Notes: generated from the sequence alone by a model not told the origin. Positions 13,351 to 33,814 are shown, numbered from the stretch's first letter. The stretch is 64,000 bases of DNA from an uncultured Verrucomicrobiae bacterium (GCA_963815455.1 CAWFGO010000001.1:768001-832000), one strand, 5' to 3'. Translations and numbers: made by a program.

Positions 13351-15468
13351 TTATTGAGAAGCGACACTGCGGTTAAAGGATTCCAGTTTGTCCAGAATCA
13401 TACTCTTGGTCAGCAATTCCGGAAACACAACCGGTTCCGCGGATTTGCCGGGATAGAGCACATACAGTGGGACACCCGGGCGGCCAAAATGTTGCAATAA
13501 TTTTGTGATCTCCGGATCGCCGTTGGTCCAGTCGGCCTTCAGCTTGACGATGCCGTGGCGTTGAAACGCGTCGCGCACGGCGTCGCTCTCGAGCACGCTT
13601 TTCTCGTTGAATTTGCAGGTGAGACACCAGGCGGCAGTGAAATCGATGAAGACGGCGCGCCCCTGATCGAGTTCGCTTTGCAGGCGCCCCGGAGTAAACC
13701 TTTGCCAGTCACCCGCCTGCTGCGATGTCGCATCGAGCTTCGACATTCGGAATTTTCCTCCGATGAAATACGCTCCGCCACCGATCAGGAGCAGGAGCAT
13801 GAGCAGGAGCACCATCGTGCGCTTCGCGGCGGAGGCAGTCGGCAAGACGAACGCGCCTTTCATCCAGCAGGCGATGCTCACGACGAGGAGGAAACAACTG
13901 GCCCAGATCGCGCCGTCAAGGCCGCGTTGCGCGCCCAGAACGTAAAGAAGAAAGAGCAACGTGGCGATCAGGAGAAAGCCCATGAACTGTTTCACGTGGA
14001 CCATCCACGGCCCCGGCTTGGGCAGAAACCGCAGCCAGGCCGGTTGCGCACTGAGCAACAAATAGGGCGCGCTCATTCCGGCGGCGATGGCCAGAAACAT
14101 CGACAGAATTACCGGGGCGGATTGAGTAAAGGCGAACCCGAGCGCTGTGCCGAGAAACGGTGCGGTGCATGGCGTGGCCAGAATGGTCGCGAACACGCCT
14201 TGGAAAAATGAGCCGAGATCGTCTTTGCGTTCCGCAGTCGAAAGCAAACCGCGGGTCGTGCTTTGCGGCAGGGAAATCTCGAACACGCCGAATAGATTCA
14301 ACGCGAAAACGAGGACCAGCACACTCATTCCCAGAACGAAATACGGATTCGTGAACTGCAAGCGCCCAGGTGATCTGATGACCTGCCGATTTCAGCGCGA
14401 CCAGGATCAGCGCCAGGCCGACGAACCACGCGAAGATGCCAGCCACGAAAGCCAGACCGCTCCGCAAAATGCGTTGTCGATCTTGTCCGGCCTGTTTAAC
14501 GAATCCGAAAATCTTCAGCGAGATCACCGGCAGCACGCACGGCATCAGATTCAAAATGAACCCGCCGATAAAACCGAAAAGGAGAAACGTGAAGAGTCCG
14601 CGCGACTGGGCAGGCACAGACGCCGCCTCAGGCGACTTCGATTTCAACCGAGAGCAACCAACTTGTGCGGTTCGGATCGGTCGGGCCCTGGCCCGCTACA
14701 ACAAGCCCGCGGATTTGATCCGTTGGCGCGGTTTCGAATGGGACGGTAATGGTGAGTTCATCTCCCTGCGCGGTCGCTTTTGGATGTCCAACAACGCTTT
14801 TCTCATCCGGCAGCGGATAAAAATCGACGTAGGGATAGTTTGCGACCGCTGCCGTGTTAAAGGTCACCGAAAGTTCAGAAGCTTTGTGTGGTCCACCGCT
14901 TAACGAACATCGCGCGATCGGGCCATGGCTGTGGCAGCATCCGACGAAATTGTGCGAACAGGTCCGCGTTCGCGGGGAGGCTCGATGTCGAAGTTGGCAG
15001 TTCCATCTGCACATTGGCGCTGCCGGGAATGCAGATTTTTTCGCAAACGAGCCAATTCGCTTCGGCCGAAAGCTTCATGTTCGGCTCGGCAATGGATGCT
15101 GGTGGAGTAATTTTCTGCATGAGCAGAACTTCGTCGTGGTACCCGTAGATCTGGATGTCGCCCGGTTCGTCGAGCTTGAGCGGAATCGGCCATTGAATTT
15201 CGCCAACTTTCCAGCCCGGCGGCAGATTCCATTTGATCTCGGTGGGAATCCCGGCGTCACCCGGAAATTTCCAATAGGTGTGCCAGCCTGGCGCCATTCG
15301 CAGCAGGAGTCCGACCGTGAACGGGTTACCGGGAACAACTGCAGTCGTATCCGCCACCAGGCTCGCTTTGACGAGCACTTTGCCCCCGTAGGTTTGGGCC
15401 TGAAGCGACGCGACCCCGGCAAAGATCGACAACAGCACTGCGCCGGCGATCGTTCTAGCCACCTTCAT
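13351..15468 (-). CDS. dsbD: DsbD-family protein-disulfide reductase (frameshifted into about 4 pieces)
   Basis: GWHTYWKFPGDAG and LVCEKICIP N-domain; ILNLMPCVLPV and LATPCTAP TM domain; DFTAAWCLTCK thioredoxin domain. Confidence 0.88.
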
Positions 15469-15530
15469 ACAGACACCTAACATCGCAGCGCGTTCGCAGC
15501 AATGGCTCGGCAAGTGCTCCAAAACAGAGA

Positions 15531-16367: not shown

Positions 16368-17465
16368 TTATTTCTTAATGCTCACAGTGGCGTTGGTGGG
16401 AGATGAAACCCTATAGCCCGACCCGGACGAAAGGGTCATCTTGGCTGCCTTCGCCTTCTTGGCCACTTTTAGTACAGTCAGGACAACCTCGGTGGAACTG
16501 GCTCCGGCCGGAATAATCGCCTGGCCGTAAGTTCCGCTTAACGAATAAATTGTTCCCCGCTTGGCGCTGCCACTCATGGCGTATCGGACGGTAACCGAAT
16601 TATTCGGATCAATAACCGAAGCGGCGATCGTGTAGACTGCCGTGCCGCCCGCTCCCACTGTAGTCGGCGAAGCCGAGACGCTAACGACAGGGGTTGGATT
16701 TGGAGTGGCGGTCGGAGTCGGAGTCGGCGTTGGTGTCGGAGTCGGTGTTGGCGTTGGCGTGGGCGACGGCGTTGGCGTTGGCGTTGGCGTTGGTGACGGT
16801 GTTGGCGTTGGTGAAGGAGTCGGTGTGGGAGTTGGCGACGGCCCGGGTGCGCCATAAATGCTCTGGCCACCGTCGATGTCATCACTGGCAAGAGCATCGA
16901 GATTGCTCACGATCGAGTTCATGATCGCGCTAACGTGCTGGCCGCTTTGATCGGGATGTCCCAGGCCCAGGGCGTGCCCCGCCTCATGAAGCAAAACCCG
17001 CCGGATGTCAATTGCGGATCGGAGCGAGCCTCGGTAGGAATCGAAGCTCCTGTTTTGATTAAAAAGGATATCTGCCTCGATCATCCGAGAGCCCGAATAC
17101 CGGTAATAGGTCACCGCCAGGGTGTTCGCGCCAAAGCTTTGACCAAAAACGGTGTCCGAAAAAACGACCGAGTTGAGGCCATCGCCGGAAGAGGCAGTGG
17201 AGCCTCCACTTGCTGAGGCCAGCTGGATTCTCTCAACGTTCAAGTCCCAACTGGTAAGGGCGGGCTCGGCCGCGGTGTCCCATGAGGTATTGCCGTCAAT
17301 CAAAGTGCGACCGGCATTGCCGAGGCCCATTCGAAAAGTAACTGTGGTTCCCGAGTTCCAACTAGGTCCCTCCAGAACATAGGCGCGCAATCCTACGGGA
17401 AATGCAGCCAAAAACAGGGCGAGGGTGGTGCTGGCAAGAGTGGAAAATGCGAATTTGCGTCTCAT
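16368..17465 (-). CDS. secreted matrixin-family (M10-like metzincin) metalloprotease with Pro/Thr linker and C-terminal Calx-beta/Ig-like domain
   Basis: [11 protein letters not shown] zinc motif, Met-turn AIMNS, EADILFN, (PT)n linker; start at MRRKF inferred. Confidence 0.88.
16694..16842 (-). repeat. coding hexamer repeat encoding the (Pro-Thr)n linker
   Basis: repeated GGCGTT/GGAGTC/GGTGTT units on + strand, read as PTPTPTP on - strand. Confidence 0.85.
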
Positions 17466-17634
17466 GGTTGGGAGAGAGAAAAGGGTTAGCACAGGGTAGA
17501 GGGAGCTGGTTTCTTTATAAAAACCATAAAGCACGATGCGTGCTCATTGGGTTTTCACCGGGCCTTTTTCTTCGAAAAAACCTTTCGGCGGCAACATCAG
17601 AGCACCTATGGCCGGCAATGGGCTTTCCAGTGAT

Positions 17635-19553: not shown

Positions 19554-21575
19554 TCAATCCGCAAACGGCTGCGGCCCCCCCATTTCCAACAGGCGTGTAG
19601 CCTCCAGACGATGCTGATCAGCGAGGTCGGAACGGCCAATTCGCCCGTAAATGCGCGAAAGATAGCGATGCGCCAGTACGAAACCAGGCCGCATTCGCAG
19701 AGAGATTTCGAAGGCCTGAACCGCGCGTTCGAACCAACCGAGCCGGGAGAGCAACGCACCGAGTTGAAAGTGCGCCTCGGGAAATTCGTGGCGCAGTCCC
19801 ACCGCCAGTAACGCGTGATCGATTCCCTGCTCGACGAAACTTTGCCGTGGCAACGCCACGCTCAATCCGTAATGACCTTCGGCTGAATCAGGATCGACAT
19901 CCAACACGCGCTTGAATGCGCGTTCGGCCTCGGGCCACCGGCGTTGGCGCAGATAAAGCCGCCCGAGATATGTTTGCGTCACCGGATCGCCCGGCGCAAT
20001 GAGTTCCGCTTCGTGGAAAGCATCCGCGCAGGCTTCCATATCACCGCGCGTCCAGGCCATTACTCCCCGCAACACGTTCGTCTGCGGTGTGGCAGGCTCA
20101 AGGCGTTCCAGTGCCTCGAGCGCCGGTTTCGCGTCTTCCGGCGTCTGCGCGGCCAGGCAGGCCTGCGCGAACGCTCGCCAATAACGTGCCTCGTTCGGAT
20201 GTTTGGCCGTAAGCTTTGACAGGACCTCCTTGCCTTCGCGCGTCCGGCCCGCCTCGCACAAGCTCACTGCCACATTGAAATCGGCTTCCGCCTCCGCCAA
20301 CGCCACCATCCGATGCACATTATTGGCGGGATCGGCGATGTAGCCGAGGTCAACGAGTTGACGCAACGCGGCCTGCGCTGCCGCCGGATTTTCGTCTTCG
20401 ACCTTCGGTAACAGCCGACCATCTTCGCCCGCGACTTTTTCCCATGATGGAATTCGCTCGATATCCGGCGCCTGCTCAAAAGCGCTCACCAGCGGTTTGC
20501 CTTCCATGTCCTCGCCGATAGGCAATCCGAGCAACGTCAGCACCGTTGGCGCGATATCCAGCAGGGTCGCGCCCTCGATTCGTTCGTCCGCGCGAATCCC
20601 CGGGCCGTGCAGCACAAAAATTCCCTGGGGCCGATGCCACTTCGCCGGTTCGACGCGGCCTCGCGGACGCCGTGCCCCGCTTTCGAATCCGTGATCGGAC
20701 ACGATTAGAACATGCGCATTCGGTCCGGCCAGCTCGACCAGGCGTCCCAGCATTAGATCATGAAACCGGTAAATGCCGGTCATCACTTCGCGGTAAAATT
20801 CGAAGTCATGTTCCGGAATTTCGGGCAGACGCGGCGGATGAAACGGCATGAACTCATGGCCGACCTGGTCGATGCACTCGTAGTAGATCGCGCCGAAATC
20901 CCAGGCCTCGTTTTCCAGCAGCTCGGTGGCGACGGCATGCACCGTGATGACTTCAGCCAGTCGTTGGGCCAGGAATTCGAGCCGATGCCTGACCAGCGGG
21001 TCATTCTGATCAAGCTCCGGTGCGCGCGGAATCAATTGCTGAAGCGGCGGCGGCTCGATATCGCGCGGATGGACGCGCAGCTCCGCAAGATTTTCGGCGA
21101 GCGAGCTTGGCTCAACGCTTCCCGGAGGGATCGGCCAGGTGTCCGGCGTCGCGTCGGTTGGCGGAACGCTGAACAGGTTCGAGACCATTGCGCCACGCAC
21201 CGGTTCGGCCGGATGGCTCGCCTGCCACGCGCAAACGACGCTCCGGCGATCGGTTTGCGAAACAATGTTCCAGAGCGCCTTGCAACGCCGTGTCCGGGTG
21301 CCCACTGGGCGCACACCGGATCGGTCCGGCAAGGGCTCGATAAACCCGCGAATACCATGTGCGTAGGCGCGTTTCCCGGTTGCGATACTGGTCCATAGGA
21401 TTGGCGAAAGCATCGGCGACAGCGACGCCACGTTGCCGATCACACCACCTTCGACAAGGCACTGAAGATTCGGCATCAGCCCGGCATCGAGCAAAGGATG
21501 AATCACCTGCCAATCAGCCGCGTCCCAACCCACAAGCAACACGCGCGCTGGATTGTTGCGAACAGGCGAACTCAT
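19554..21575 (-). CDS. alkaline phosphatase superfamily (NPP/phosphodiesterase-like) enzyme with C-terminal TPRs
   Basis: VGWDAAD, LSPILWTSIATG (Ser nucleophile region), DQVGH, VSDHG, WHRPQG, LLDIAPTVL, LVDLGYI, then TPR helices; no signal peptide visible. Confidence 0.85.
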   Translation of the reverse strand: MSSPVRNNPARVLLVGWDAADWQVIHPLLDAGLMPNLQCLVEGGVIGNVASLSPMLSPILWTSIATGKRAYAHGIRGFIEPLPDRSGVRPVGTRTRRCKALWNIVSQTDRRSVVCAWQASHPAEPVRGAMVSNLFSVPPTDATPDTWPIPPGSVEPSSLAENLAELRVHPRDIEPPPLQQLIPRAPELDQNDPLVRHRLEFLAQRLAEVITVHAVATELLENEAWDFGAIYYECIDQVGHEFMPFHPPRLPEIPEHDFEFYREVMTGIYRFHDLMLGRLVELAGPNAHVLIVSDHGFESGARRPRGRVEPAKWHRPQGIFVLHGPGIRADERIEGATLLDIAPTVLTLLGLPIGEDMEGKPLVSAFEQAPDIERIPSWEKVAGEDGRLLPKVEDENPAAAQAALRQLVDLGYIADPANNVHRMVALAEAEADFNVAVSLCEAGRTREGKEVLSKLTAKHPNEARYWRAFAQACLAAQTPEDAKPALEALERLEPATPQTNVLRGVMAWTRGDMEACADAFHEAELIAPGDPVTQTYLGRLYLRQRRWPEAERAFKRVLDVDPDSAEGHYGLSVALPRQSFVEQGIDHALLAVGLRHEFPEAHFQLGALLSRLGWFERAVQAFEISLRMRPGFVLAHRYLSRIYGRIGRSDLADQHRLEATRLLEMGGPQPFAD

Positions 21576-21650
21576 GACCTAAAGCTTCGGATTCTATCGG
21601 CCCTGGGCGACCCTCGCAAATTGCTCCTGCCAGTGCGGTTTTGTCGCGAC

Positions 21651-22340
21651 TCAATCCAACGGTTTTGATTTCCGCCCGCGCCAAATACGCACGCCGAGCG
21701 CGCCCACGGCCATGAGTGACAGAAGTGCTGTCGTCGAAGGTTCGGGAACAATTCCCGGGAATGGGCCGCCACTATCCTCGTAGGCGTACCACACGAGGGT
21801 CCGTGGTTGCGTCGCGTAACCGGAGGAGAGCGCAATGTTTGCGACGCCGAAGTTGTATTGCCCGGTGGATTCGTTGAGAAAACGAAAGCCGATATTATTT
21901 TGATCGCTGTTGAGAACAAAGGCTGTCGGCCCGGTTGTTTCGATGCCGCTCGTTCTACTATAAGTCCATGAACTGTCGATGATCGTGAAGTAGGGGAGAT
22001 TATCGACTAACGTGTTCGAAGTTCCTCCAGTGTAGTTTGAGAGGATGCCGTCATTTGGGCTGGCCGAATTGTTCGCCCAGATGTTCAGCCCGGTGCTGCT
22101 CCATGGATTGATGTCCCACCCCGGAACTGCTGCCGGTGTTATTGAGGTGACACCGGTGACGACATTAATGTAAACACCGGCAGTCGTGCTGGGGATATTG
22201 ATGTTGACGATGCCGCTGTAAATGATCGTTGCGTCCGCGTTGTGGATGGCAGCTGCGGTAAGAGCCGCGCCCGCGATTGTAGCGTATGCCGCGAGGTTGC
22301 GATCAAGACGTGAAGCTGGCTTCTGATTGCGTGGGCTCAT
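21651..22340 (-). CDS. PEP-CTERM sorting-domain protein A (Ser/Thr/Asn-rich)
   Basis: leader ..LAAYATIAGAAL..NADA; C-terminal VPEPSTTALLSLMAVGALGVRIWRGRK. Confidence 0.9.
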   Translation of the reverse strand: MSPRNQKPASRLDRNLAAYATIAGAALTAAAIHNADATIIYSGIVNINIPSTTAGVYINVVTGVTSITPAAVPGWDINPWSSTGLNIWANNSASPNDGILSNYTGGTSNTLVDNLPYFTIIDSSWTYSRTSGIETTGPTAFVLNSDQNNIGFRFLNESTGQYNFGVANIALSSGYATQPRTLVWYAYEDSGGPFPGIVPEPSTTALLSLMAVGALGVRIWRGRKSKPLD

Positions 22341-22464
22341 TCGCGGCCTGATATGCCAAATTCAATAGGAAATTTCAATGATATTCGTTCAGTCGATCGT
22401 TCCGAGGGCCCGAATTTCTTGATCTCTGATGTCCCTCAGAGTGACCAATAGTGAAAGCACCCGT

Positions 22465-24654
22465 TCACTCGCCTGCCTGGCGAGGTTGATGGTATGGTTC
22501 GTGGCGGCGATAAAGTTCCAGGCGCTGTTCGATTTGCCGCGTAAGGGAAATATCATCCATTGCTCTCGCCTTTCCAAGGGCGCGACTCGCCGTCTCTAGT
22601 GCAGTTTGAAAATCTCGGAGCTCGGCATAAGCGGCCGCCAAGGTATCGAGCTGCTCGGCGTCCGGGTCGTTCGTTAGGCCACAGCTTTGTCTCGCCGTCG
22701 CCACAGCATCGGCGCCATCGCGCAATTTTTCATCAGCCGCGGTTGCCAGGAGCCAGGCCAGCTTGGTGCGCGAAACCGTATCGTCACTTTTCAATCTCGC
22801 TGCGTCTCGATAATGCGTGATCGCTTCGCCCCATTGCCGGGTTTTGCTCAGAATATTTGCCAGGCTCAAATGCGCGTCAGCATCATTAGGTCGTCTTTCT
22901 AGCACTTTGCGATAATGAGTAATCGCTTCGTCCAATCGGCCTCTTTGAACAAATATATCGGCAAGCAGTTTGTTCGCCTCCCACAAATCAGGCTTGATTT
23001 GAAGCGCATTCACAAGGTGAGGGATGGCCTGGTTTGGCTGCCCCGATTGCAGAAGCGCGTAGCCGAGGTTGAGGTGGGCTCCGGCCATGCCGGGATTTAT
23101 TTCGATGGCTTTTTGAAACTGGCTGATCGCTTCTGTGACCTGTCCATTTTGCGCGAGAACGGTTCCGAGATTGCTGCGCACCTGTGGAAGGTCTGGAACA
23201 AGATCCAGCGCCGTGTGATATTCCGCGATCGCCTCATTCAACCGGCCAACTCGAGAAAGCGCATTGCCAAGATTGTTATGCGCCTCCGCATATGCGGGCT
23301 GGATTTGTAACGCTCTCCCGTACTCAAAAATCGCTGCGTCAGGCTGACCTTTCTCGTCCAAGGCGAGGCCCAGATTAGTGTGGGCGACGAAATTGTTGGG
23401 GTCGATAGCCAGAGCATGATTCCACAGTTTTTCGCTGTCGTGCCAATAGGAAGCCTCGGCGCGAGTCAGGATTACGAGCCCGGCAATCACAATCGCGCCT
23501 GCCGTGGCGAGAATCTTCCGCCGCCACCGCCACCGAGCGAACAGGTCCGCGGCCCCCCAAATGATCATAATGTAGAGACCGATGTGAGGCAGATAGGTGT
23601 AGCGATCGGCGCGCGCGTAATAGGAAATTTGGACGATTCCGATGACCGGCAACATCATTCCCAAATACCAGAGCCAGCCAACGGCCAAATACGGATGCGT
23701 TTTCCAAACAATGAATACGCCGATTGAAATGGCGATGAGGAGCGCCATGCACAATCCAACCTCGAGAAGCGAGAATCCATTGGGCGGATTGAAATATGGA
23801 ATTGTTAGTCTCGACGGATAAAACATCTGCTCGAGATAAATCACGTAGGAAACCACCGTGTTCTCCAGCCGCGCCCAAAGCGATTCTCGAAAGGCAGGTC
23901 CAACTTTTTCCGGCGAGAGACTCGTGGCCAGGATCGACAATGCCGAAAGGGCGAATAACGGAATCTTCTCCATCAGTAGATGACTTCTGATTTCTGATCT
24001 CTGACCTCTGAATCTTCCCAGCGGCCAATAATCCAACAGCAAGAGGACAAACGGCAGCGTCACCAGCATGCCTTTGGACATCAATCCAAGTGCAAAAAGG
24101 AGCACGACCAGCAAATAGTCGAACACCGGAGGCTTTCCCCGGGCGTACCGCGCATATGCGACCAACGTGAGCATGAAGAAAACGCCACTCAGAACGTCTT
24201 TGCGCTCCGCGATCCAGGCCACCGACTCCACTCGCAGCGGATGGACAGCAAAGAGCGCCGCGACGAATCCACTCCGCCAAATGCTGCCAGTCATTTCGCG
24301 CAATGCCAGAAACAGGAGAATCACCGCGGCGGCATGAAGCGTAACGTTCGTTAAGTGATGGCCGCCGGCCCTGAGCCCAAAGAGTTGGCAATCCAGCATG
24401 TGAGACCACCACGTTACCGGATGCCAGTGACCAATTGCGGCAAATGTGAACGACCACGCAATTCCCTTGAGCGTCAGGCCGCGAAGAACACCCGAATTTT
24501 GATAAACGTACATGTCATCGTCGTAATTGATAAACTGATGCCGGATGGTCTGGCCAAAGCCCAGCCAAACGATCGCTGCCAGAGCTACGCAGATCGCTCC
24601 GACGACGCGACGGTCACGATGTGAGATTCGCGAAGCCTCAGTTTCCAGACCCAT
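22465..24654 (-). CDS. TMTC-like GT-C membrane protein with TPR array (paralog 1)
   Basis: FINYDD luminal acidic motif, WHPVTW, HPLRVESVAWIAERKDVLS, SK, ADRYTYLP, then repeated AHxNLG TPRs. Confidence 0.82.
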   Translation of the reverse strand: MGLETEASRISHRDRRVVGAICVALAAIVWLGFGQTIRHQFINYDDDMYVYQNSGVLRGLTLKGIAWSFTFAAIGHWHPVTWWSHMLDCQLFGLRAGGHHLTNVTLHAAAVILLFLALREMTGSIWRSGFVAALFAVHPLRVESVAWIAERKDVLSGVFFMLTLVAYARYARGKPPVFDYLLVVLLFALGLMSKGMLVTLPFVLLLLDYWPLGRFRGQRSEIRSHLLMEKIPLFALSALSILATSLSPEKVGPAFRESLWARLENTVVSYVIYLEQMFYPSRLTIPYFNPPNGFSLLEVGLCMALLIAISIGVFIVWKTHPYLAVGWLWYLGMMLPVIGIVQISYYARADRYTYLPHIGLYIMIIWGAADLFARWRWRRKILATAGAIVIAGLVILTRAEASYWHDSEKLWNHALAIDPNNFVAHTNLGLALDEKGQPDAAIFEYGRALQIQPAYAEAHNNLGNALSRVGRLNEAIAEYHTALDLVPDLPQVRSNLGTVLAQNGQVTEAISQFQKAIEINPGMAGAHLNLGYALLQSGQPNQAIPHLVNALQIKPDLWEANKLLADIFVQRGRLDEAITHYRKVLERRPNDADAHLSLANILSKTRQWGEAITHYRDAARLKSDDTVSRTKLAWLLATAADEKLRDGADAVATARQSCGLTNDPDAEQLDTLAAAYAELRDFQTALETASRALGKARAMDDISLTRQIEQRLELYRRHEPYHQPRQAGE

Positions 24655-26599
24655 TCGTTTTCTTCGTCTCGATTTCCCTCAGCGCTCCGCGGGCCGGCGC
24701 GTAATCCGGCGCAATTTGAAGCACTCCTTGCAATTCCTGGATCGCTTGATCGACATCGCCGCGGCCAGCCAGGGCCCGGGCGAGATTCGTGCGCGCGAGG
24801 ACGCGCTGCGGTTCAGCTCGCGTGATTGGCGCCAACTGGTCTATCGCTTCATCGTTCCGGCCAAGCGCTACCAGAGCGAAGCCATAATTGATGTGCGCCA
24901 GGGTGTTGTCCGGATCGAGTTGAACCGCCCGCTTCAGCTGTTTCGCGGCGTCCTCGTACCGATTATTGATGAGAGCGATGGAACCGACGCTGTTGAACGC
25001 GGTCGACGAATTCGGATTTAGATAGATTGATTTTTCCAGCTCAGTTAGGGCCTCGGCATAGCGCCCCTGCTTCAACAAGACATTCCCGATATTTGCGTAG
25101 ATCCGCCCATAACGCGGTGATTCCTGGACCGCCTCCCGATACTGAGCGAGCGCGCCATCAAGGTTTCCTTCCACCTCCAGAACGCTTCCGAGATTTTGAT
25201 GGGCAATGAAGTTACCTCGCGTGACCTTCAGGGCGTGAGTGAACAAAGACCTGCTGTTTTGCCAGTAGGAAACCTGAACCCACGTGACGCTGGTAAGAAC
25301 CGCCAGCCACGCACAGACCGCGGTGACGACAGCGGATTTTCCCAGCCGCGAAACCCCGGCCGGAAGGCTCCACGCGACCATAACAAAAACCCCGATTGAC
25401 GGAATATAAGTGTATCGATCGGCAATCGAATGCATCCCAACCTGAACCAAACCGATCACTGGAACCAATGTGCCGAGAAACCAGAGCCAGCCGATTAGCA
25501 GCCACGGACGACGACGGCGACAAACCACTGCGATAGCAGTGATGATCGACAAAATCGCGACGCTGACGATGACATCGGTAAGGCGCCAGTGACCAGGGTG
25601 CGGATAAAAAACGGCCAGGTTCACCGGAGCGATAAGCTTGTCCAAATACATGCGGTATCCGACAAGCGCGCTCGCTGCGCGCGTCCAAATCGGCGAAGCC
25701 GCCAGGCCGACGACGGAGCCAGCGCTGCGTTGAGAGACAATCGCGATTACGCTGAATATCGCCGCGATTAACAACAACGGAATTTTCTCGAGAATAACGC
25801 GCGACCGGGGAAGTGCGCGCGACGCCTCCGTCTCTACTACTGGAGGCGTCGCCTCGGCCGCTATTGCCGGCGCGCCGGGGTCGAGCGCAAAAGGCTTCCA
25901 TCGACATAGGGGCCAGATATCGATCAGCAATAGGAGAAACGGAAATGTGACCCACATTGGCTTCGCCAGAAGAGAGAGAACAAACAGGCATGGTGTTACT
26001 AGATATTTTCTGACCGAAGGCTGGCGCGTGTATGCGACGTAGGCGCCGAGCGCGAGCAAACCGAAAAAGCTGCTGAGCACGTCCTTGCGTTCTGCCACCC
26101 ACGCGACCGATTCGACGTGCAACGGATGTATCGCAAAAAGGGCCGCCACTAACGCACTGCCCCAAATGCTGCTGGTCCGGTCCGCCACTTGGACGGATTC
26201 GGCCCGCGGCGAACTCGGACCATCGGTCATTCGGCAAAAAATTAGAAACAACAACAGCGTATTGACGCCATGCAAGAGCACGCTGGTGAGATGATGGCCG
26301 CCAGCCCAGCCATCCCACATCGTCACGTCGAGCATGTGCGAGAGCCACGTCAGCGGATGCCAGTTACCGCTCTTTAATGTGGTGAAGGCCCAGACGATTC
26401 CCTTCCAGTTCAGCCCATGCAAAACATGCGGGTTTTCCGTGACGTAAAGGTTGTCGTCGTAATTAATAAAATCGTGACGAAGCGCCTGCAGGTAGGGAAG
26501 AACCGCCAGCGCGAAGAGGAGCGCTCCTATCATTGCGGTAACGCGTGAGGCATGCCCTTTGGCAGTTGCATTCATGTTGCGATCAGCTTTCACCGCCAT
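24638..26599 (-). CDS. TMTC-like GT-C membrane protein with TPR array (paralog 2)
   Basis: FINYDDNLYV, WHPLTWLSHMLD, HPLHVESVAWVAERKDVLS, ADRYTYIP, TPRs; overlaps paralog 1 start. Confidence 0.82.
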   Translation of the reverse strand: MAVKADRNMNATAKGHASRVTAMIGALLFALAVLPYLQALRHDFINYDDNLYVTENPHVLHGLNWKGIVWAFTTLKSGNWHPLTWLSHMLDVTMWDGWAGGHHLTSVLLHGVNTLLLFLIFCRMTDGPSSPRAESVQVADRTSSIWGSALVAALFAIHPLHVESVAWVAERKDVLSSFFGLLALGAYVAYTRQPSVRKYLVTPCLFVLSLLAKPMWVTFPFLLLLIDIWPLCRWKPFALDPGAPAIAAEATPPVVETEASRALPRSRVILEKIPLLLIAAIFSVIAIVSQRSAGSVVGLAASPIWTRAASALVGYRMYLDKLIAPVNLAVFYPHPGHWRLTDVIVSVAILSIITAIAVVCRRRRPWLLIGWLWFLGTLVPVIGLVQVGMHSIADRYTYIPSIGVFVMVAWSLPAGVSRLGKSAVVTAVCAWLAVLTSVTWVQVSYWQNSRSLFTHALKVTRGNFIAHQNLGSVLEVEGNLDGALAQYREAVQESPRYGRIYANIGNVLLKQGRYAEALTELEKSIYLNPNSSTAFNSVGSIALINNRYEDAAKQLKRAVQLDPDNTLAHINYGFALVALGRNDEAIDQLAPITRAEPQRVLARTNLARALAGRGDVDQAIQELQGVLQIAPDYAPARGALREIETKKTNGSGN

Positions 26600-26662
26600 T
26601 CACGCCCGCAAAAAATATTGCGCAAGCCTAATACCTTGCGCTCCATCAAAAAACTTGCGCTG

Positions 26663-26702
26663 AAAAACAAAAAGCCCGCGCGAAACTTAATTCGCGCGGG
26701 CT
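26663..26702 (-). terminator. intrinsic terminator of PEP-CTERM gene B
   Basis: 12-bp stem AGCCCGCGCGAA/TTCGCGCGGGCT followed on - strand by TTTTGTTTTT. Confidence 0.85.
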
Positions 26703-26726
26703 CTTGGAGAAATATGCTGCCCGTGA

Positions 26727-27407
26727 TTACGCTTTGCGCTTGCGCCAGGTCCGCACACCTAAAGCGCCAGCCGCCATCACTCCTAACAGAGCGAAGGTTG
26801 ACGGCTCTGGAACCTGGCCGGCCATAATCGAATTGCCCATGTTATCGTAGGCGTACTCGACAAGTAACCGAGGCTGCCCTGAACTGGTTGCGGCTAACGA
26901 AAATCTGGCCCATCCAAAGTTGTAGGTGCTTGTCCCCTCGTTGAGGAAACGGAAGCCAACCACATTGTTACTGCTGCTGAGGTTGAAGGCAGTCGCGCCA
27001 GTTGTTTCGATTGATGAAGTCCTGCCATAGCTCCATGAGGCGTCAATCACGGTTCCCAACGGAATGTTGTCGACTAGAGTAGCGGAAGTTCCTCCCGTGA
27101 AGTTCTGAAGCACCCCATCATTCACGCTGGCCGAATTGTTTGCCCAAACGTTAAATGACGCGCTCCCCCAAGGATTGAGATCCCAGCCGGGAGCACCAGC
27201 TGGCGTGGTCGAGGTCACGCCGGTTACGAAATTGATATAAATGCCAGAAGTCGTGCTCGGAACCGTAAAGTTCACAACGCCGCTCCAAACGATATCGGCA
27301 TCGGCGTTCGGTATTGCAGGCGCGGCCAGCGCAGCACCAGCAACCGCTGCGTACGCTGCCAGACGACCATCAACACGTGGACTAAGTTTAAGATTTCTCG
27401 GGCTCAT
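26727..27407 (-). CDS. PEP-CTERM sorting-domain protein B (paralog of protein A)
   Basis: ATG 27407 after AAGGA RBS; MSPRN..LAAYAAVAGAAL..NADA; shares PGWD(I/L)NPW, WANNSAS.NDG and GFRFLNE with A; C-terminal VPEPSTFALLGVMAAGALGVRTWRKRKA. Confidence 0.9.
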   Translation of the reverse strand: MSPRNLKLSPRVDGRLAAYAAVAGAALAAPAIPNADADIVWSGVVNFTVPSTTSGIYINFVTGVTSTTPAGAPGWDLNPWGSASFNVWANNSASVNDGVLQNFTGGTSATLVDNIPLGTVIDASWSYGRTSSIETTGATAFNLSSSNNVVGFRFLNEGTSTYNFGWARFSLAATSSGQPRLLVEYAYDNMGNSIMAGQVPEPSTFALLGVMAAGALGVRTWRKRKA

Positions 27408-27450
27408 AATGTTTTTCCTTTGCGAGGTATGCGGTCTGTTTTGATCAATT

Positions 27451-27475
27451 TGTGCAAAAAGGTCAAGCTTTTTCG
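27451..27475 (-). promoter_or_regulatory. conserved upstream motif AAAAAG-N6-CTTTTT around a -35-like TTGAC (gene B)
   Basis: TGTGCAAAAAGGTCAAGCTTTTTCG; 23/25 identical to 28339..28363. Confidence 0.65.
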
Positions 27476-27558
27476 AGTAATTCCGGCAGTGAATTGGGGC
27501 CTTCCATCGACGGCAACCGAACGTCGCACTGGCTCTGATTCTACACAGTTCGATTTGG

Positions 27559-27599
27559 AAACAGAAAGCCCGCGCGAAACTCAATCGGCGCGGGCTTTC
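27559..27599 (-). terminator. intrinsic terminator of PEP-CTERM gene C
   Basis: stem GAAAGCCCGCGC/GCGCGGGCTTTC, then TGTTT on - strand; shares AAAGCCCGCGCGAAACT with the terminator at 26671. Confidence 0.8.
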
Positions 27600-27625
27600 G
27601 AGAAAATCGTTCGTTTAAGTTAGTC

Positions 27626-28291
27626 TTATGCTGCTTTGCGTTTGCGCCAGGCGCGCAAACCAAGACCCGCCGCGCCCAAACCTAGCAGGGCCAACGTGGT
27701 CGGTTCCGGCACGATCGAGATGACACCGGGACCGCTGATGCCGAAGTAGTAATCGCCAGTGGCTTGACCGGCCGAGGTGGTGGAGACGAATGTTGTGTCG
27801 CGAAAGCCCGACGTATACAGGAAGTATTGGGTGCCCGCGGTCAGAGCGACGTTGAGCAACCGCGAACCCGGTTGAGCGCCGGTGAACCCAGTGGAAGTCG
27901 CTGTGAGTCCCATGCCAGAGTAGGGGCCTGGAAGGACCGTCAGGGTGCCGGTGAAGTCGTCGCTCGAGAATAGGGGCGCGCCCAGCGCTGGCGGAGTGAA
28001 CGTGTTGGCAAATACCGCCAGCCATGTATCCAACGCGTTGCTCGGCGTTCCAACCGAGTTGATCGAAGCAAGCTCGAAGGTATAGCTCCCGCTCGTACCA
28101 ACAGTGAATGCGTAGACATTGTAATACTGCAGGCTGGTTCCCGCCGTGCTCTGGCCCGTAGCGTGAGCTGTCGGTGACGCCGCAGTGAGAGTGCCATTAC
28201 CGAATACTATGTCGGCGTAGGACACGCTCGAAAGGGCAAAGATGCAGACGACCGACGCTGCGAGGAGTTTAAATGATTTAGTAAGTTTCAT
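27626..28291 (-). CDS. PEP-CTERM sorting-domain protein C (different passenger, PPC-like beta-sandwich likely)
   Basis: ATG 28291 after GGAG; signal peptide ..SYA-D; YNVYAFTV..G.YTF..LDTWLAVF..SDD..LTAGTQYFL; C-terminal VPEPTTLALLGLGAAGLGLRAWRKRKAA. Confidence 0.9.
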   Translation of the reverse strand: MKLTKSFKLLAASVVCIFALSSVSYADIVFGNGTLTAASPTAHATGQSTAGTSLQYYNVYAFTVGTSGSYTFELASINSVGTPSNALDTWLAVFANTFTPPALGAPLFSSDDFTGTLTVLPGPYSGMGLTATSTGFTGAQPGSRLLNVALTAGTQYFLYTSGFRDTTFVSTTSAGQATGDYYFGISGPGVISIVPEPTTLALLGLGAAGLGLRAWRKRKAA

Positions 28292-28338
28292 AAGCAGGAT
28301 CTCCGGTTTTCGTTGTAGAAGTAACTTGTACCCGGTCA

Positions 28339-28363
28339 TGCGCAAAAAGATCAAGCTTTTTCG
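28339..28363 (-). promoter_or_regulatory. conserved upstream motif AAAAAG-N6-CTTTTT (gene C)
   Basis: TGCGCAAAAAGATCAAGCTTTTTCG; - strand TTGATC-N18-TACAAG. Confidence 0.65.
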
Positions 28364-28537
28364 GTGTCCTAAAAGACTCTTTTGGCCGCCCCCCCTGGCG
28401 CTGAGCTACAAGGTCTCTGGGGTAACTCCGCAATTTCTCGGATACTCTTTCTCCTTGCTTGCCTCGGTGCGAAGACTGGTGGGATCGCCATCTTTTTTTT
28501 CCCTGCAGTGATTTGCGGTCGCTGCTAGAGACTGTAG

Positions 28538-30556
28538 GTGGCCGAATATTCTGAGGCAAACAAAGGGGTGGATGACCGATCGTCGGTCGGCGGCGTTTGT
28601 TTTTTTCTGGCGGCCCTCGTCTGGCTGGCTTTCGGCCAAACGATTCGGCACGCGTTCGTCAATTATGATGACGACGTTTATGTTTATCAAAATCCGTACG
28701 TTCTGGCGGGACTGACGCGCCGGGGAATTGGGTGGGCCTTTGCCTATGGCAGGATCGGTCATTGGCATCCGCTAACCTGGTTTTCACACATGCTGGATTG
28801 CCAGCTCTGGGACCTTCGGGCGGGCGGGCATCATCTGACCAACGTGCTCCTGCACGCCGCCGCTGCGATCCTTCTCTTCCTGGCCTTAAAGCAAATGACG
28901 AGTGGTCCGGGCCGGACTGGCAGTATTTGGCGGAGCGCAGTCGTGGCCACGATCTTCGCGATTCATCCGCAGCGGGTGGAATCGGTCGCCTGGATCGCGG
29001 AGCGCAAAGATGTGCTGAGCGGCGCTTTCTTCATGCTCACGATCCTCGCCTACGTGAGATACGTGCGAAAGGCGCCGTCCGTGGCTGGATATGCGCCGGT
29101 GGCGATTCTATTCGCGCTCGGGCTCATGTCGAAGGGGGTGCTGGTGACGTTGCCATTTGTGCTCCTGCTCCTCGACTACTGGCCATTGCGACGAATAACA
29201 CCGGAAATCCTCCCAGCGATTCGACGGCCCGAAAACCGCGCAAAGGTTTGGTGCTTGCTCCGGGAAAAGATTCCGCTCTTTCTCCTCTCAGCCGCGTCTT
29301 GCCTGATGACCAGTCTGTCGCCGGAGCGGATTGCGCCGGCCCTGCAAATGTCGCTTCGAGCGCGGGTCGAAAACGTCATCGTTTCCGATGTCATTTACAT
29401 AAAGCAAATGCTCTACCCGGTGGGTCTGGAACTGCCCTACTTCAATCCGCCGGGCGGCTTCCCGCTTTGGCAGGTCGGCGGGGCGCTCGCACTTCTGCTC
29501 GCCGTCTCGATCGGCGTGTTTGTCTTTCGGAAAACGCATCCTTACCTGATCGTGGGCTGGCTCTGGTATCTGGGAATGATGGCGCCGGTCATTGGACTGG
29601 TGCAAATCTCCTACTACGTGCGCGCTGATCGCTACACCTATTTGCCGCACATCGGTCTCTACATCATGGCAATTTGGGGCGGCGCGGCGTTGTTAGGGCG
29701 CGTCCGCGCGGGCCGCTACATCCTCGGGGGCGTTGCTTTGCTCCTGATCGCGGCGCTCCTCTCGCGCACTCGGGCGCAGACCTCCTATTGGAATGACAGC
29801 GCGACGCTCTGGACGCACGTCTTGCAGGTGAACCCGGAGAACCACGTTGCTCATAGCAATCTGGGCCTTGTCCTGGCCGAGAACGGCCAAATCGAAAGCG
29901 CTATCACGCATTTTGAAAAGGCCCTGGAGATTCAACCGCTGTATGCCGATGCCTACAACAACATGGGCACCGCGCTTTCGCGTACCGGGCGGACACGCGA
30001 GGCGATTGCCCAATACCGGAAGGCGCTCGCTCTCGATGCGGAGCACCCGCAAATGCAGAACAATCTCGGGATCGCGCTCGCCCAAAACGGGCAGGTGAGC
30101 GAGGCGCTGCCGCACTTCCGCAAAGCGATCGAGCTCAAGCCCGATTTCGCCGCAGCCTACAGCAATTTCGGACACGCCCTTTCGCTCCAGGGACGAATCG
30201 ATGAAGCGCTGCCCCAGTTTTTGAAAGCGCTTGAGATAACGCCCAACTCCATCCTGGCGCACAAAGAGGTCGCCGTGGCATTGCTAAGAATTGGGCAACC
30301 CTCCGAAGCGGTTACCCATTATCGCAAGGTTCTCGAACTCGGGGGCGATGCGGCCGACGTGCGTTTCAATCTGGCCGCCGCCTACGCCGAGATCGGAGAT
30401 TTCGATGCTGCGTTCGAGACGGCGACTCGCGCACTGGAACAAGCGAGAGCGAACGGAGACGACCGGCTCGCCCGGCAAATCGAAGAACGCCTCGATCTTT
30501 ATCGGCAACATCAACCCAACCGGCAGACCCTGCCAAAGGATTCCGGTAATCGTTAA
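28538..30556 (+). CDS. TMTC-like GT-C membrane protein with TPR array (paralog 3, divergent)
   Basis: FVNYDDDVYV, WHPLTWFSHMLD, HPQRVESVAWIAERKDVLS, ADRYTYLP, TPRs; close to paralog 1 including C-terminal RQIE.RL.LYR. Confidence 0.82.
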   Translation: MAEYSEANKGVDDRSSVGGVCFFLAALVWLAFGQTIRHAFVNYDDDVYVYQNPYVLAGLTRRGIGWAFAYGRIGHWHPLTWFSHMLDCQLWDLRAGGHHLTNVLLHAAAAILLFLALKQMTSGPGRTGSIWRSAVVATIFAIHPQRVESVAWIAERKDVLSGAFFMLTILAYVRYVRKAPSVAGYAPVAILFALGLMSKGVLVTLPFVLLLLDYWPLRRITPEILPAIRRPENRAKVWCLLREKIPLFLLSAASCLMTSLSPERIAPALQMSLRARVENVIVSDVIYIKQMLYPVGLELPYFNPPGGFPLWQVGGALALLLAVSIGVFVFRKTHPYLIVGWLWYLGMMAPVIGLVQISYYVRADRYTYLPHIGLYIMAIWGGAALLGRVRAGRYILGGVALLLIAALLSRTRAQTSYWNDSATLWTHVLQVNPENHVAHSNLGLVLAENGQIESAITHFEKALEIQPLYADAYNNMGTALSRTGRTREAIAQYRKALALDAEHPQMQNNLGIALAQNGQVSEALPHFRKAIELKPDFAAAYSNFGHALSLQGRIDEALPQFLKALEITPNSILAHKEVAVALLRIGQPSEAVTHYRKVLELGGDAADVRFNLAAAYAEIGDFDAAFETATRALEQARANGDDRLARQIEERLDLYRQHQPNRQTLPKDSGNR

Positions 30557-30636
30557 TCGCGATCCGTGCCGAAGCTTTTGTGGGCGTTGTGCGCTTGACT
30601 TTGCCTCGCGTAAATCGCCGGATTAGTTTTCGCCAC

Positions 30637-33600
30637 ATGAATTCCCTTCAAACGGAGATCGAGCAGCGCGGAGAACGCATTTTCGATCTGGTCGATCGAC
30701 ATCCCGAATCGCTCTTCAGCAAGGCCGGTTTTTACCAGCGAATGATGGCGTTCTCGATGCGGGACGAGCAGTTCAAGGTGCAATTGTTCCGGTTTGTCGA
30801 TGTCCTCGCCTCGCTCCGCCGCTCCACCGATATCGTGCAGCATCTCGACGAATATTTCGCCGAAATGCGCAACGGCTTCGCCCCGGTGCTCCATACCGGT
30901 GTGCGCCTGGCCAAGATCGTGCCCTGGATCAGCGGCCAATTGTTGCGCTGGAATGTCTCCGGCATGGCTCGCCAGTTCATCGCTGGAAAAAATCCGGAGG
31001 ACGTGATGAAGACCCTTCGCAAACGGCGGGCGCAGAAGATCGGATTCACTGTCGATCTTCTGGGCGAAGCGGTGGTGAGCGAAAAGGAAGCCGATGAATA
31101 CGGAGCGCGCTGCCTCGATTTGCTCGAAGGTCTCGCCCGCGAAACGCAGGGCTGGTCCGATCCGCTCGGCGAAAATACCGCGTTGTTTCCGGTGGTGAAT
31201 CTTTCGGTCAAGGTCTCCGCCCTTTATTCACAAATGAATCCGGCCGATCCCGCCGATGCTATCCATCATTTGGCGCCGAAACTTCGTCCGATTCTCCGGC
31301 GCGCGCGCGAACTAGGCGCGTTCGTTAACTTCGACATGGAAAGCTACGCCCATAAGAACGCGACGCTCGAGCTTTTCAAAACATTGTTTAACGAAAAGGA
31401 GTTTAAGGACTGGCCGCACGCCGGCATTGTCATTCAGGCCTACCTGCGCGACGCGGAAGACGATCTTGTCGATCTTATCGAGTGGGGTCGGGCTCGCGGG
31501 ACGCGTTTTACCGTGCGCCTGGTAAAAGGCGCCTATTGGGATTACGAAAAGATCAAATCGGGACAGAACGGCTGGGAGGTTCCGGTGTTCCTGCAAAAGC
31601 CGGAGAGCGACGCCAATTTCGAGGCGCTCACCCGAATCCTGCTCGAAAACGAGTCAATCGTCACAGCCGCATTCGGCTCGCACAACGTCCGCAGCATCGC
31701 CCACGCCCAGGCCCTGGCCTACGAACTCGGGATCGATCCCAGCCGGTTCGAATTTCAATTACTCTACGGCATGGCCGGCCCGGTGAAACGCGCGCTGGTC
31801 GAAATGGGTTATCGCGTCCGCGAATATTGCCCGGTCGGCGAATTGCTCCCCGGAATGTCGTATCTTGTCAGGCGATTGCTCGAGAACACCTCCAACGAAG
31901 GATTCCTGCGGGCAAAATTTTCCGAGAATGTTTCGGCCGAGGAATTGCTGCGTGATCCCAATGAAATTGTAGGGCGTCTGTGTCAGACACCATCCGGTGC
32001 CGCCTCACAGAGACGGCCTACAGTTAAAAATGGTGAATTTCCGGTGTACGCACGGAGAAGATCGACAGGAACGCGATGGCGTTTATTTTGACCCAATGCA
32101 TGACGTCGCTTTTAAAAATTCGCCTCTCGTAAATTTCGCCCTCAAAGAGAGCCAGGAAAAAATGCTGGCTGCGTTGCGCGATATGCGTGGCCGCCTTGGC
32201 CAAAAATTTCCGCTTGTCATCAATGGCGAAAAAATCTGGACCGATAAACTAACGCCTTCGGTTAACCCGAGCATGCCGGAACAAATTGTCGGGTACGCGG
32301 CGGAGGCGGGAATTCCCGAAGCGGAGCGCGCCGTGGGCGCCGCTCGAGCCGCGTTTGCGAAGTGGAGCCGCACCCCAGTCGAAACCCGCGCGAGCTTGCT
32401 CGAACGCGTCGCCGCGATTCTCGACCGCCGTCGCTACGAACTTTCCGCGCTCGAAGTATTCGAAGTCGGCAAACCGTGGGGCGAAGCGGATGGCGATATT
32501 CGCGAGGCGATCGATTTTTGCAATTTCTATGCGCATCACATGCGCCTGATCGGCCGGCCCCGGCTTACCCAACAGGTTCCCGGCGAAGAAAGTTATCAGC
32601 ACTACTGGCCGCGCGGGGTCGCCCTTGTCATCGCGCCCTGGAATTTCCCGATGGCGATCCTGACCGGAATGGTGACCGCCGCGCTGGTCACGGGCAACAC
32701 CGTGATCATGAAACCATCCGAGCAATCGCTCTGCATCGGCGGGATGCTCATGGAAATTTTCGAGGAAGCCGGCATACCGCCCGGCGTGTTGAATTTTATC
32801 AATGGCCGCGGCTCGATCGTCGGCGCGCACATGGTCGATCATAAAGATGTCGATCTTATTGCCTTCACCGGGTCGCGCGAGGTCGGATTGATGATTTACG
32901 AAAGCGCCGGCAAAACGCGCGAGGGTCAGCGCGAGCTGAAGCGCGTCATTTGCGAGATGGGCGGCAAGAACGCCATGATCGTCGATTCCGATGCCGATCT
33001 CGATGAAGCAATCATCGATTCGATTTACTCCGCTTTCGGCTTTCAGGGACAGAAATGCTCCGCGCTTTCGCGACTGATCGTCCTGGAAGAAAACTACGAC
33101 CGTGTAATGGAACGATTGCTTTCCGCGGCGGCTAGTTTGCGCGTTGGCAATCCGGAGGAACCGGGCATCGTCGTTGGCCCGGTCATCGACAAAGCCGCTT
33201 ACAATCGGATCCTGGAGTACATCGACATCGGCAAGAGCGAAGCGACACTCGCTTATCAAGCGAAAGATCTGCCGCCGAAGGGATACTTCATTCCCCCAAC
33301 GATTTTCACAGACGTGAAACCCAACATGCGAATCGCCCGCGAAGAAATCTTCGGTCCGGTGCTGAGCGTCATCAAAGTCCGGGACCTCGACGAAGCGATC
33401 GAAGTCGCCAACGGCACCGATTACGCGTTAACCGGCGGCTTTTTCTCGCGCAGCCCGGCCAACATCGAGCGGGTGAAAGCGCAATTGGAAGCGGGCAACG
33501 TTTACATCAACCGCTCCTGCACCGGCGCAGTCGTCGGACGCCATCCCTTCGGCGGATTCAAGATGAGCGGCGGCGGCACCAAAGCCGGCGGCGTCGATTA

Positions 33601-33814
33601 TCTCCTGAATTTCCTCGTCCCGCGCATCGTCACCGAAAACATCATGCGCCACGGCTTCGCCCCGAAGAAACGCCGGAACATGCGCGACCTGGCCAGAACC
33701 GGCACGCACGTGCCTGTGGGGCTGGCGGGCGATTACGCTTCCACAATGAAACGACGGCTGCCGCTTCTGTGGTTTTCGCTTCACAATTCGGCGCGTTTAC
33801 ATCAGAATCTGTAA
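30637..33814 (+). CDS. putA: bifunctional proline dehydrogenase / P5C dehydrogenase (frame break in the linker near 32030-32095; 3' end uncertain)
   Basis: PRODH: DLLGE, FDME, IQAYL, RLVKGAYWD, GSHNVRS, YLVRRLLEN; P5CDH: PWNFP, FTGS, EMGGKN, GQKCSA, EEIFGP, PFGGFKMSG. Confidence 0.9.
31968..32022. repeat. GTAG-type REP-like doublet inside the putA inter-domain linker
   Basis: TGTAGGGCGTCTGTGTCAGACACC..CTCACAGAGACGGCCTACA; similar to the intergenic copy at 36406..36455. Confidence 0.75.

Follow-up and report, generated by a model that had tools for sequence, protein, structure and literature searches.

What joins genes for sorted surface proteins and genes for membrane-bound enzymes in one bacterial locus? 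The question is raised by positions 19,554 to 30,556 of a 64,000-nucleotide stretch (the window) from an uncultured Verrucomicrobiae bacterium (GCA_963815455.1 CAWFGO010000001.1:768001-832000; genome G000). Between ltaE (PF01212) and putA lie seven intact genes: three for PEP-CTERM proteins (PEP A, PEP B, and PEP C), three for TMTC-like enzymes of the GT-C type (T1, T2, and T3), and one for AlkP-TPR, a phosphodiesterase-like protein of the alkaline-phosphatase superfamily with tetratricopeptide repeats (TPRs). A sequence-only reading of this DNA had described the same gene order, which stands, and had seen in it a dedicated system in which TMTC homologues glycosylate the neighbouring PEP-CTERM proteins. 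Comparison with relatives places the centre elsewhere: a PEP-CTERM gene with an unusual leader and AlkP-TPR are the constant core of a cassette, and the GT-C enzymes are lineage-specific additions. At a probability of about one half, we read the locus as a modular two-compartment tailoring cassette for its own PEP-CTERM proteins, in which glycosylation by GT-C enzymes would be an optional periplasmic step.

The constant core and its exchangeable partners

The tie between AlkP-TPR and PEP-CTERM genes was followed through 78 AlkP-TPR loci, the best of 324 relatives; 70 of them came with 1.5 kb or more of upstream sequence. Some loci coincide with stretches that were fetched separately, and the two sets are not independent. 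A same-strand PEP-family gene lies no more than 3.2 kb upstream in 60 of the 70 and is immediately upstream in 52 of those 60. Such upstream open reading frames (ORFs) of at least 190 aa carry a PEP-like tail in 55 of 61 cases. The positional test found AlkP-TPR near a PEP gene in 10 of 13 clusters where 0.55 were expected; in the other three, the adjoining PEP genes have variant tails. The loci come from records titled Verrucomicrobiota, Betaproteobacteria, and Planctomycetota, including Rubrivivax, Roseateles, and planctomycetes, and the family has a patchy distribution, with members in 10 of 251 genomes sampled across the phylum. In relatives, PEP B orthologs adjoin AlkP-TPR with or without a GT-C gene. 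The role of defining PEP partner, given earlier to the TMTC-like genes, thus passes to AlkP-TPR as the fixed partner of PEP A and PEP B, with no TMTC-like gene in 69 of the 78 loci.

What accompanies this core varies from locus to locus. With the loci divided into close (at least 68% identity, 35 loci) and distant (below that, 43 loci), a TMTC-like gene occurs in 9/35 and 0/43, a sulfotransferase, fused or separate, in 2/35 and 22/43, and flavin-dependent halogenase-like genes in 10/35 and 0/43; the partner labels come from single-sequence profiles, by which distant forms could be missed. The best NCBIfam match of the halogenase-like genes is CmlS, below cut-off. In close relatives (L037 12806-16411 and L152 14795-18426), such genes (~597 aa, WIWFIP) stand in tandem directly after AlkP-TPR; they have no close match in G000. 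This genome holds a second cassette (C1:108322-111866; L048 6823-10367) with a leader-bearing PEP-CTERM gene, AlkP-TPR, and a stand-alone sulfotransferase-like gene, and the cassette of G013 contains a GT2 of the polyprenol-phosphate sugar synthase type.

AlkP-TPR matches PF01663 at 84.4 bits against a cut-off of 23, together with TPR families. Residues D18, S57, D236, H240, D294, H295, and H314 are invariant in 63 of 63 aligned sequences, and we take them to be nucleophile and metal ligands by analogy to NPP enzymes. The NPP branch of the superfamily has the profile match and the conserved two-metal residue set in common with AlkP-TPR, which differs in its Ser at the nucleophile position, its fused TPRs, and its lack of a signal peptide; some relatives are fused to a sulfotransferase. 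The [C/S]xPxR motif of formylglycine-dependent sulfatases is not found in AlkP-TPR, where the segment reads LSPxLW in alignments, and no close solved structure was found by sequence. Because the protein begins directly with its catalytic domain and has neither a hydrophobic segment nor a hydrophobic N-terminus, a cytoplasmic location, in another compartment than the GT-C enzymes, is likely.

The three PEP-CTERM proteins end in tails recognized by TIGR02595 (20.7, 20.4, and 25.8 bits for PEP A, PEP B, and PEP C, against a cut-off of 16). PEP A and PEP B are paralogs with 64% identity, whose passenger family is matched by no Pfam model, and PEP C belongs to another family. Exosortase (PF09721) has five matches at four places in the genome, none of them in the window. 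The earlier description of these proteins as rich in Ser and Thr holds, since the two residues make up 23–27% of the mature regions against a genome median of 11%; it does not single them out. As a marker of these particular substrates, Ser/Thr richness was rejected, because 16 other PEP-CTERM-type proteins of the genome reach 12 to 28%.

The leaders of cassette PEP proteins are ~37 residues long, with a median peak hydropathy of 1.86 in 50 proteins versus 2.5 in the 16 other PEP-CTERM-type proteins of this genome. A loose R-L-x-x-Y/C pattern occurs in 47 of the 50. The leaders of PEP A and PEP B are weakly hydrophobic and end in A-x-A; that of PEP C is ordinary. The conserved pattern, loose as it is, recalls the leaders of ribosomally synthesized and posttranslationally modified peptides (RiPPs). 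In a RiPP-like, leader-directed line working on folded surface proteins, cytoplasmic AlkP-TPR would dock the leader and, with exchangeable sulfotransferase or halogenase partners, modify the protein ahead of export; dedicated TMTC relatives would then O-glycosylate it in the periplasm. T2–PEP A/B and T3–PEP C would be the first enzyme–substrate pairs defined both for bacterial TMTC-like enzymes and for PEP-CTERM modification. We put this forward as a tentative possibility.

Another account has the cassette producing or handling a small molecule that is sulfated or halogenated, with AlkP-TPR as a metabolic helper (clearing a sulfotransferase by-product, for example) and PEP A and PEP B binding the molecule at the surface. 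The halogenase-like partners match the CmlS and Trp_halogenase profiles and keep WxWxIP, and, according to the accessible text of PMC2938197, the usual substrates of such enzymes are small molecules or are bound to a carrier. The model of the PEP B passenger is beta-rich (predicted local distance difference test score, pLDDT, 83), and its seven best matches in the VIA structure search are six proteins like the haem-binding HmuY and one DUF4466 protein, at Z 5.9-7.8. These scores fall short of Z 8 and of the reliable range, and Foldseek returned no match for the model at E<=0.001. Moreover, the annotated cassette loci show no scaffold-building genes by single-sequence profiles, the close AlkP-TPR genes mostly lack an adjoining sulfotransferase, and the distinctive leader points to the handling of a precursor protein. 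We consider the small-molecule account improbable. No cadherin or Ig chain appears among the 50 VIA matches listed for the PEP B model, which leaves room for such a fold.

Membrane enzymes: fold, family, and neighbourhoods

T1 and T3 are paralogs with 68% identity over the membrane domain, and T2 is 43% identical to T1. The motifs named in the sequence-only reading (NYDD, HPxxVESVAW, and ADRYxYxP) were found again as NYDD, HPxxVESVAW, and ADRYTY, invariant across T1–T3. With 92 sequences as input, AlphaFold (AF2) modelled T1 residues 1-405 at a pLDDT of 93.7. Its top VIA match is Pmt2 (Z 19.6, root-mean-square deviation 4.7, 347 residues aligned), and other matches include AglB and Pmt4 (both Z 18.9), ArnT (Z 17.6), STT3, and PglB. 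All of ranks 1-20 are GT-C enzymes or glycosylphosphatidylinositol-transamidase chains, rank 21 drops to Z 5.7, and the top Foldseek matches are Pmt4, ArnT, AglB, and PglB. The T1 model thus bears out the GT-C fold that had been proposed, and T2 and T3 probably share it, given their identity to T1.

The modelled domain has ~11 membrane helices, after which the protein matches TPR families. An acidic pair, D45-D46, follows the first helix of T1 and is at least 90% conserved among the 92 sequences. The active site and the TPR arm probably face the periplasm, sidedness being judged from basic loops. The TPR regions of the three enzymes span about 320, 200, and 250 aa. Pfam gave no matches on the three membrane domains, a PDB sequence search with them returned LysR noise only, and a profile search for sequence-only GT-C evidence was swamped by the TPRs. 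ESM Atlas groups T2 with bacterial clusters bearing PMT_2 (score 0.97; PMT_2 on 21-30% of members) and links it to a eukaryotic DUF1736 cluster (score 0.92).

Animal TMTC1-4 are protein O-mannosyltransferases, which move mannose from Dol-P-Man to Ser/Thr of cadherins. As described in the available part of PMC7801869, they have in common with T1–T3 a GT-C domain of ~11 helices followed by a TPR arm. The seven TMTC motifs (M1-M7) of Table 4 in that paper were placed in T1–T3 by position relative to the helices, without alignment to human TMTC sequences. By this placement, M1 (DD after the first helix), M3 (RxD; RKD here), and M7 (ERxxY; DRYTY here, with Asp for Glu in the acidic-Arg-x-x-Tyr pattern) are present. 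M2 (SHKSYRP) is replaced by GHWHP or GNWHP, M4 (KE[T/Q]xxT) retains K194 and T199 and lacks the Glu, the loop has no DW (M5), and a single Pro stands for M6 (PxxP). PF08409 (TMTC_DUF1736) has no match in T1–T3 at E<=1 and none above cut-off genome-wide. T1–T3 also differ from the animal enzymes in being bacterial and encoded beside candidate substrates. On motifs and model, T1–T3 are TMTC-like GT-C/TPR enzymes and not TMTC members. Of the homology claimed earlier, the link through fold and ESM Atlas survives, and several TMTC motifs and PF08409 fail.

A second comparison is human TMEM260, also an eleven-helix GT-C enzyme with TPRs, whose luminal TPR domain is alone enough to recruit an extended acceptor peptide, according to the accessible text of bioRxiv 10.64898/2026.03.17.711096. 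It differs in that a Rossmann-like domain separates its membrane part from its TPRs, and T1–T3 have no PF11028 match. By analogy, TMEM260 may serve as a mechanistic template for the proposed periplasmic step.

Unlike the family at large, the two subclades represented in the window adjoin PEP and AlkP-TPR genes more often than chance. When 261 family genomes were searched with T2 alone and six candidates were scored in each, nine matches emerged, T2 itself among them; seven lie within a cassette, in the same orientation as its PEP A/B-family genes and AlkP-TPR. Both metagenome members of the T2 clade with downstream DNA are followed directly by AlkP-TPR. In the trees, which are quick and FastTree trees, the T2 clade comprises 11 rows (support 100), of which 10 show a PEP gene at a distance of up to 4.5 kb and 10 show AlkP-TPR. 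Seven of the nine rows in the T1/T3 clade (support 100) are near a PEP gene or AlkP-TPR, and the other 32 rows have a PEP neighbour in four, some of them fetched for that reason. T2 orthologs remain in the cassette across different chromosomal settings, while the position of T2 within it varies; settings other than ltaE/putA involve what we take, from N-terminal sequence, to be transporter/ftsK-like and tRNA-guanine transglycosylase-like genes. The divergent T3/PEP C pair recurs in four genomes (G000, G021, G132, and G162), in one of which, G021, a long distance separates it from the AlkP cassette. In G163 the arrangement is nearly identical to that in the window, with at least three PEP A/B-family genes, T2, AlkP-TPR, and a T1-like gene.

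The wider family was surveyed by a cluster test on 14 well-assembled genomes, where 88 TMTC-like matches (from 150 of 156 matches) form 66 clusters; one TIGR02595 match inside a TMTC-like ORF was dropped. The unpublished genomes G003, G008, and G015 support none of the claims made here. A TIGR02595 match lies within 5 kb of 7 of the 66 clusters versus 2.1 expected. Close TMTC-like homologues account for these (7 of 30 clusters versus 1.1 expected; 0 of 36 for distant ones), with the division, at 250 bits, picked after the scores had been seen and with kin that are not independent. In metagenomes, the 31 loci of at least 8 kb among 79 fetched, from 458 relatives, include a PEP gene in two and AlkP-TPR in none. 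The check on adjacency above chance therefore comes out for the subclades in the window and against a dedicated family. Family-wide dedication of TMTC-like genes to PEP-CTERM proteins is rejected on the cluster, copy-number, and metagenome counts, and the claim of a dedicated, TMTC-defined system is unsupported.

Several observations weigh against the tailoring reading. TMTC-like and PEP-CTERM copy numbers are uncorrelated across the family (rho 0.12, n=38 genomes), with 14 and 1 in G009 and 0 and 19 in G027. Two of the nine T2 matches are outside a co-oriented cassette, one of them 2 kb from an opposite-strand PEP/AlkP-TPR pair and the other 2.8 kb from a weakly scoring PEP-like gene. Two of the nine T1/T3-clade rows lack a PEP or AlkP neighbour: L155 and L154, the latter on a contig of 6.9 kb. 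Every genome match in the T2 and T3 clades comes from a single family, and the linkage counts are inflated because these matches share descent. Besides the many AlkP-TPR loci without a TMTC-like gene, the same locus in a same-genus genome (G001) has none, and the locus in the window itself lacks GT2, sulfotransferase, and halogenase genes. Finally, the GT-C fold leaves the acceptor unfixed because ArnT, a lipid modifier, is among the top fold matches.

Much of this would fit general envelope glycosyltransferases that act on many exported proteins or on lipid or glycan acceptors and sit beside PEP genes by descent in a surface-gene hot spot, with only the PEP/AlkP-TPR pair a functional unit. 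The genome has 14 TMTC-like matches (and 18 TIGR02595 matches above cut-off), and other paralogs among them adjoin GT2 genes, a pilin gene, or a giant protein; the 59 of 66 clusters with no PEP match within 5 kb, the PEP-poor metagenome loci, and the ArnT match point the same way. Such enzymes would not be expected to stay in the cassette as T2 orthologs do, across differing settings and at shifting positions, nor to give the excess of close homologues near PEP genes, and we place this explanation on the unlikely side.

The arrangement in the window could also be taken as a glycoprotein system fully dedicated to and centred on the TMTC-like enzymes, all four TPR enzymes acting on exported proteins and each TPR array picking its own substrate. 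Three GT-C genes stand one-to-one with three PEP genes, G163 repeats the layout nearly unchanged, and the TPR regions differ in length. Among relatives, however, the gene ratio varies freely and the cassette persists without any GT-C gene in most loci, T1 and T3 are paralogs of one clade, and AlkP-TPR has no export signal. We rate this version quite improbable.

Other TMTC-like genes have surroundings of their own. A distant paralog (L013 8472-11068) begins 77 nt after a type IV pilin-like gene (PF07963) and is a candidate pilin glycosyltransferase. At L006 7748-20000 and L058, TMTC-like genes stand directly downstream of a giant ORF (3893 aa in G000), convergent with a PEP-CTERM gene; the layout is similar in G013, and a frameshift divides the G000 copy. 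In G000, other paralogs have neighbouring GT2 genes (PF00535; L008 10588-11313 and L009 7660-8319), which are candidate donor synthases. In G009, with its one TIGR02595 match, a TMEM260-like gene (PF11028) and a GT2 are followed by three tandem TMTC-like genes (L061 6082-14576).

Layout of the locus

The locus in the window is a composite: T2 and T1 are inserted in the core cassette, and a T3/PEP C pair stands beside it. On the minus strand, the transcription order is PEP C, PEP B, T2, T1, PEP A, and AlkP-TPR, with T3 divergent on the plus strand (Table 1). T2 and T1 overlap by 17 nt. The starts of PEP B and PEP C are placed, in line with orthologs, at 27407 and 28291, and not at those of longer TTG ORFs.

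Table 1. Genes and predicted regulatory elements of the locus, in window coordinates.
Feature	Position	Strand	Description
AlkP-TPR	19554..21575	-	673 aa; NPP-type alkaline-phosphatase-superfamily domain and C-terminal TPRs; lacks a signal peptide; constant cassette core
PEP A	21651..22340	-	229 aa; PEP-CTERM; long, weakly hydrophobic RLAAY leader; TIGR02595
T1	22465..24654	-	729 aa; predicted GT-C membrane domain (~11 helices) and TPR arm; AF2 model, fold matches
T2	24638..26599	-	653 aa; predicted GT-C and TPR; subclade travelling within the PEP/AlkP-TPR cassette
G+C hairpin with U-tail, terminator-like	26670..26705	-	3' of PEP B; conserved; z -4.5
PEP B	26727..27407	-	226 aa; PEP-CTERM; RLAAY leader; predicted beta-rich passenger, weakly HmuY-like
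Promoter-like element (A-tract and TTGACC)	27451..27475	-	Repeat family D7; conserved in orthologous upstream regions
Second hairpin copy	27568..27595	-	3' of PEP C; z -4.2
PEP C	27626..28291	-	221 aa; different PEP-CTERM family; ordinary signal peptide; divergent partner of T3
Second promoter-like element copy	28339..28363	-	Upstream of PEP C
T3	28538..30556	+	672 aa; predicted GT-C and TPR; T1 paralog; divergent from PEP C

Two short elements mark the PEP genes. PEP B and PEP C are each followed by a G+C hairpin with a U-tail. These two copies are the only pattern matches in this genome, and cassettes of Verrucomicrobiota and Betaproteobacteria carry the same hairpin downstream of PEP genes; PEP A has no strong hairpin after it (z 0.8). 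An A-tract/TTGACC element is shared upstream of both PEP B and PEP C. Only these two conserved elements were retained because the scan for promoters and terminators did not, overall, rise above chance (6 against 5.2 and 21 against 14.7). At the sequence level, the hairpin and the promoter-like element tie PEP C to the cassette despite the unrelated sequence of PEP C itself. The hairpins would hold substrate transcripts above enzyme transcripts in abundance.

Among the flanking genes, putA (window 30580-33814) is read in two overlapping frames and is a single ORF of 1010-1020 aa in relatives, which suggests an assembly indel. Assembly indels are also likely in the gene at window 13351-15522, which runs over three frames and which we take from its motifs to be DsbD-like. 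Window 16368-17534 encodes a Matrixin-type metalloprotease (PF00413) whose Pro-Thr repeat linker may be a further target of O-glycosylation; several relatives also have this gene close to ltaE.

A proposed two-compartment tailoring model

In the tailoring model, every chemical step of which is one that we infer, the weakly hydrophobic R-L-x-x-Y leader would slow export or act as a docking site. AlkP-TPR would hold the precursor in the cytoplasm and add or remove a phospho- or sulfo-type group through the two-metal site at Ser57; in loci with a sulfotransferase or halogenase-like gene, the product of that gene would take part in this step. Once Sec has exported the protein, T2 and T1 would capture the unfolded chain with their periplasmic TPR arms, and the DD site would move a sugar from an undecaprenyl-phosphate donor to Ser/Thr; T3 would glycosylate PEP C likewise. 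Donor synthesis would be supplied in trans at this locus, as opposed to the GT2 inside the cassette of G013, and an exosortase encoded elsewhere would cut the PEP tail. The gene set thus likely decorates three exported surface proteins before and after export.

Parts of this model have counterparts in known systems. The TfpW enzyme of Pseudomonas aeruginosa is a GT-C encoded beside its exported protein substrate, the pilin PilA; to our knowledge, it has neither a TPR arm nor a cytoplasmic AlkP-TPR partner. The PEP-CTERM/exosortase system, as set out in the available text of PMC1569441 and PMC12188702, is represented here by the PEP motif, membrane helix, and basic tail and by exosortases in the genome. 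Most PEP-CTERM genes form single-gene operons (PMC1569441, accessible part), whereas those in the window are embedded among enzymes, with no exosortase gene in the locus. The proteins are described as rich in glycosylatable residues, with heavy modification suspected and glycosylation conceivable (PMC12188702, accessible part), and no modifying enzyme for them is named in the literature found, as far as its accessible text goes.

Operons with sulfotransferases and hydroxylases, for which the accessible text of PMC2938197 predicts sulfation of co-encoded surface proteins, likewise join cytoplasmic tailoring enzymes to a surface protein proposed as substrate. They involve 2-oxoglutarate dioxygenases and collagen-like or tail-collar proteins, and that text does not mention AlkP-TPR, PEP-CTERM, or GT-C proteins. 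In the literature searched, with subscription papers and supplements outside the search, neither a GT-C/PEP-CTERM nor an AlkP-TPR/PEP-CTERM pairing is described. The system is real and recurrent, and what would be new in it is a variant of substrate-linked protein modification.

Bacterial TMTC relatives are abundant (at least 7,995 of 8,000 scored candidates), and in the accessible text of the literature found they figure only as a remark, that of PMC7801869 on the existence of prokaryotic homologues. The cassette supplies small, compact enzyme–substrate candidates. If true, the cross-phylum unit of leader-bearing PEP-CTERM gene and AlkP-TPR, with its exchangeable sulfotransferase or halogenase-like genes, would imply that soil and water bacteria have surface proteins bearing sulfate or halogen. 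Should the decoration reading hold, the locus would let the modification of such surface proteins in bacteria be tested directly.

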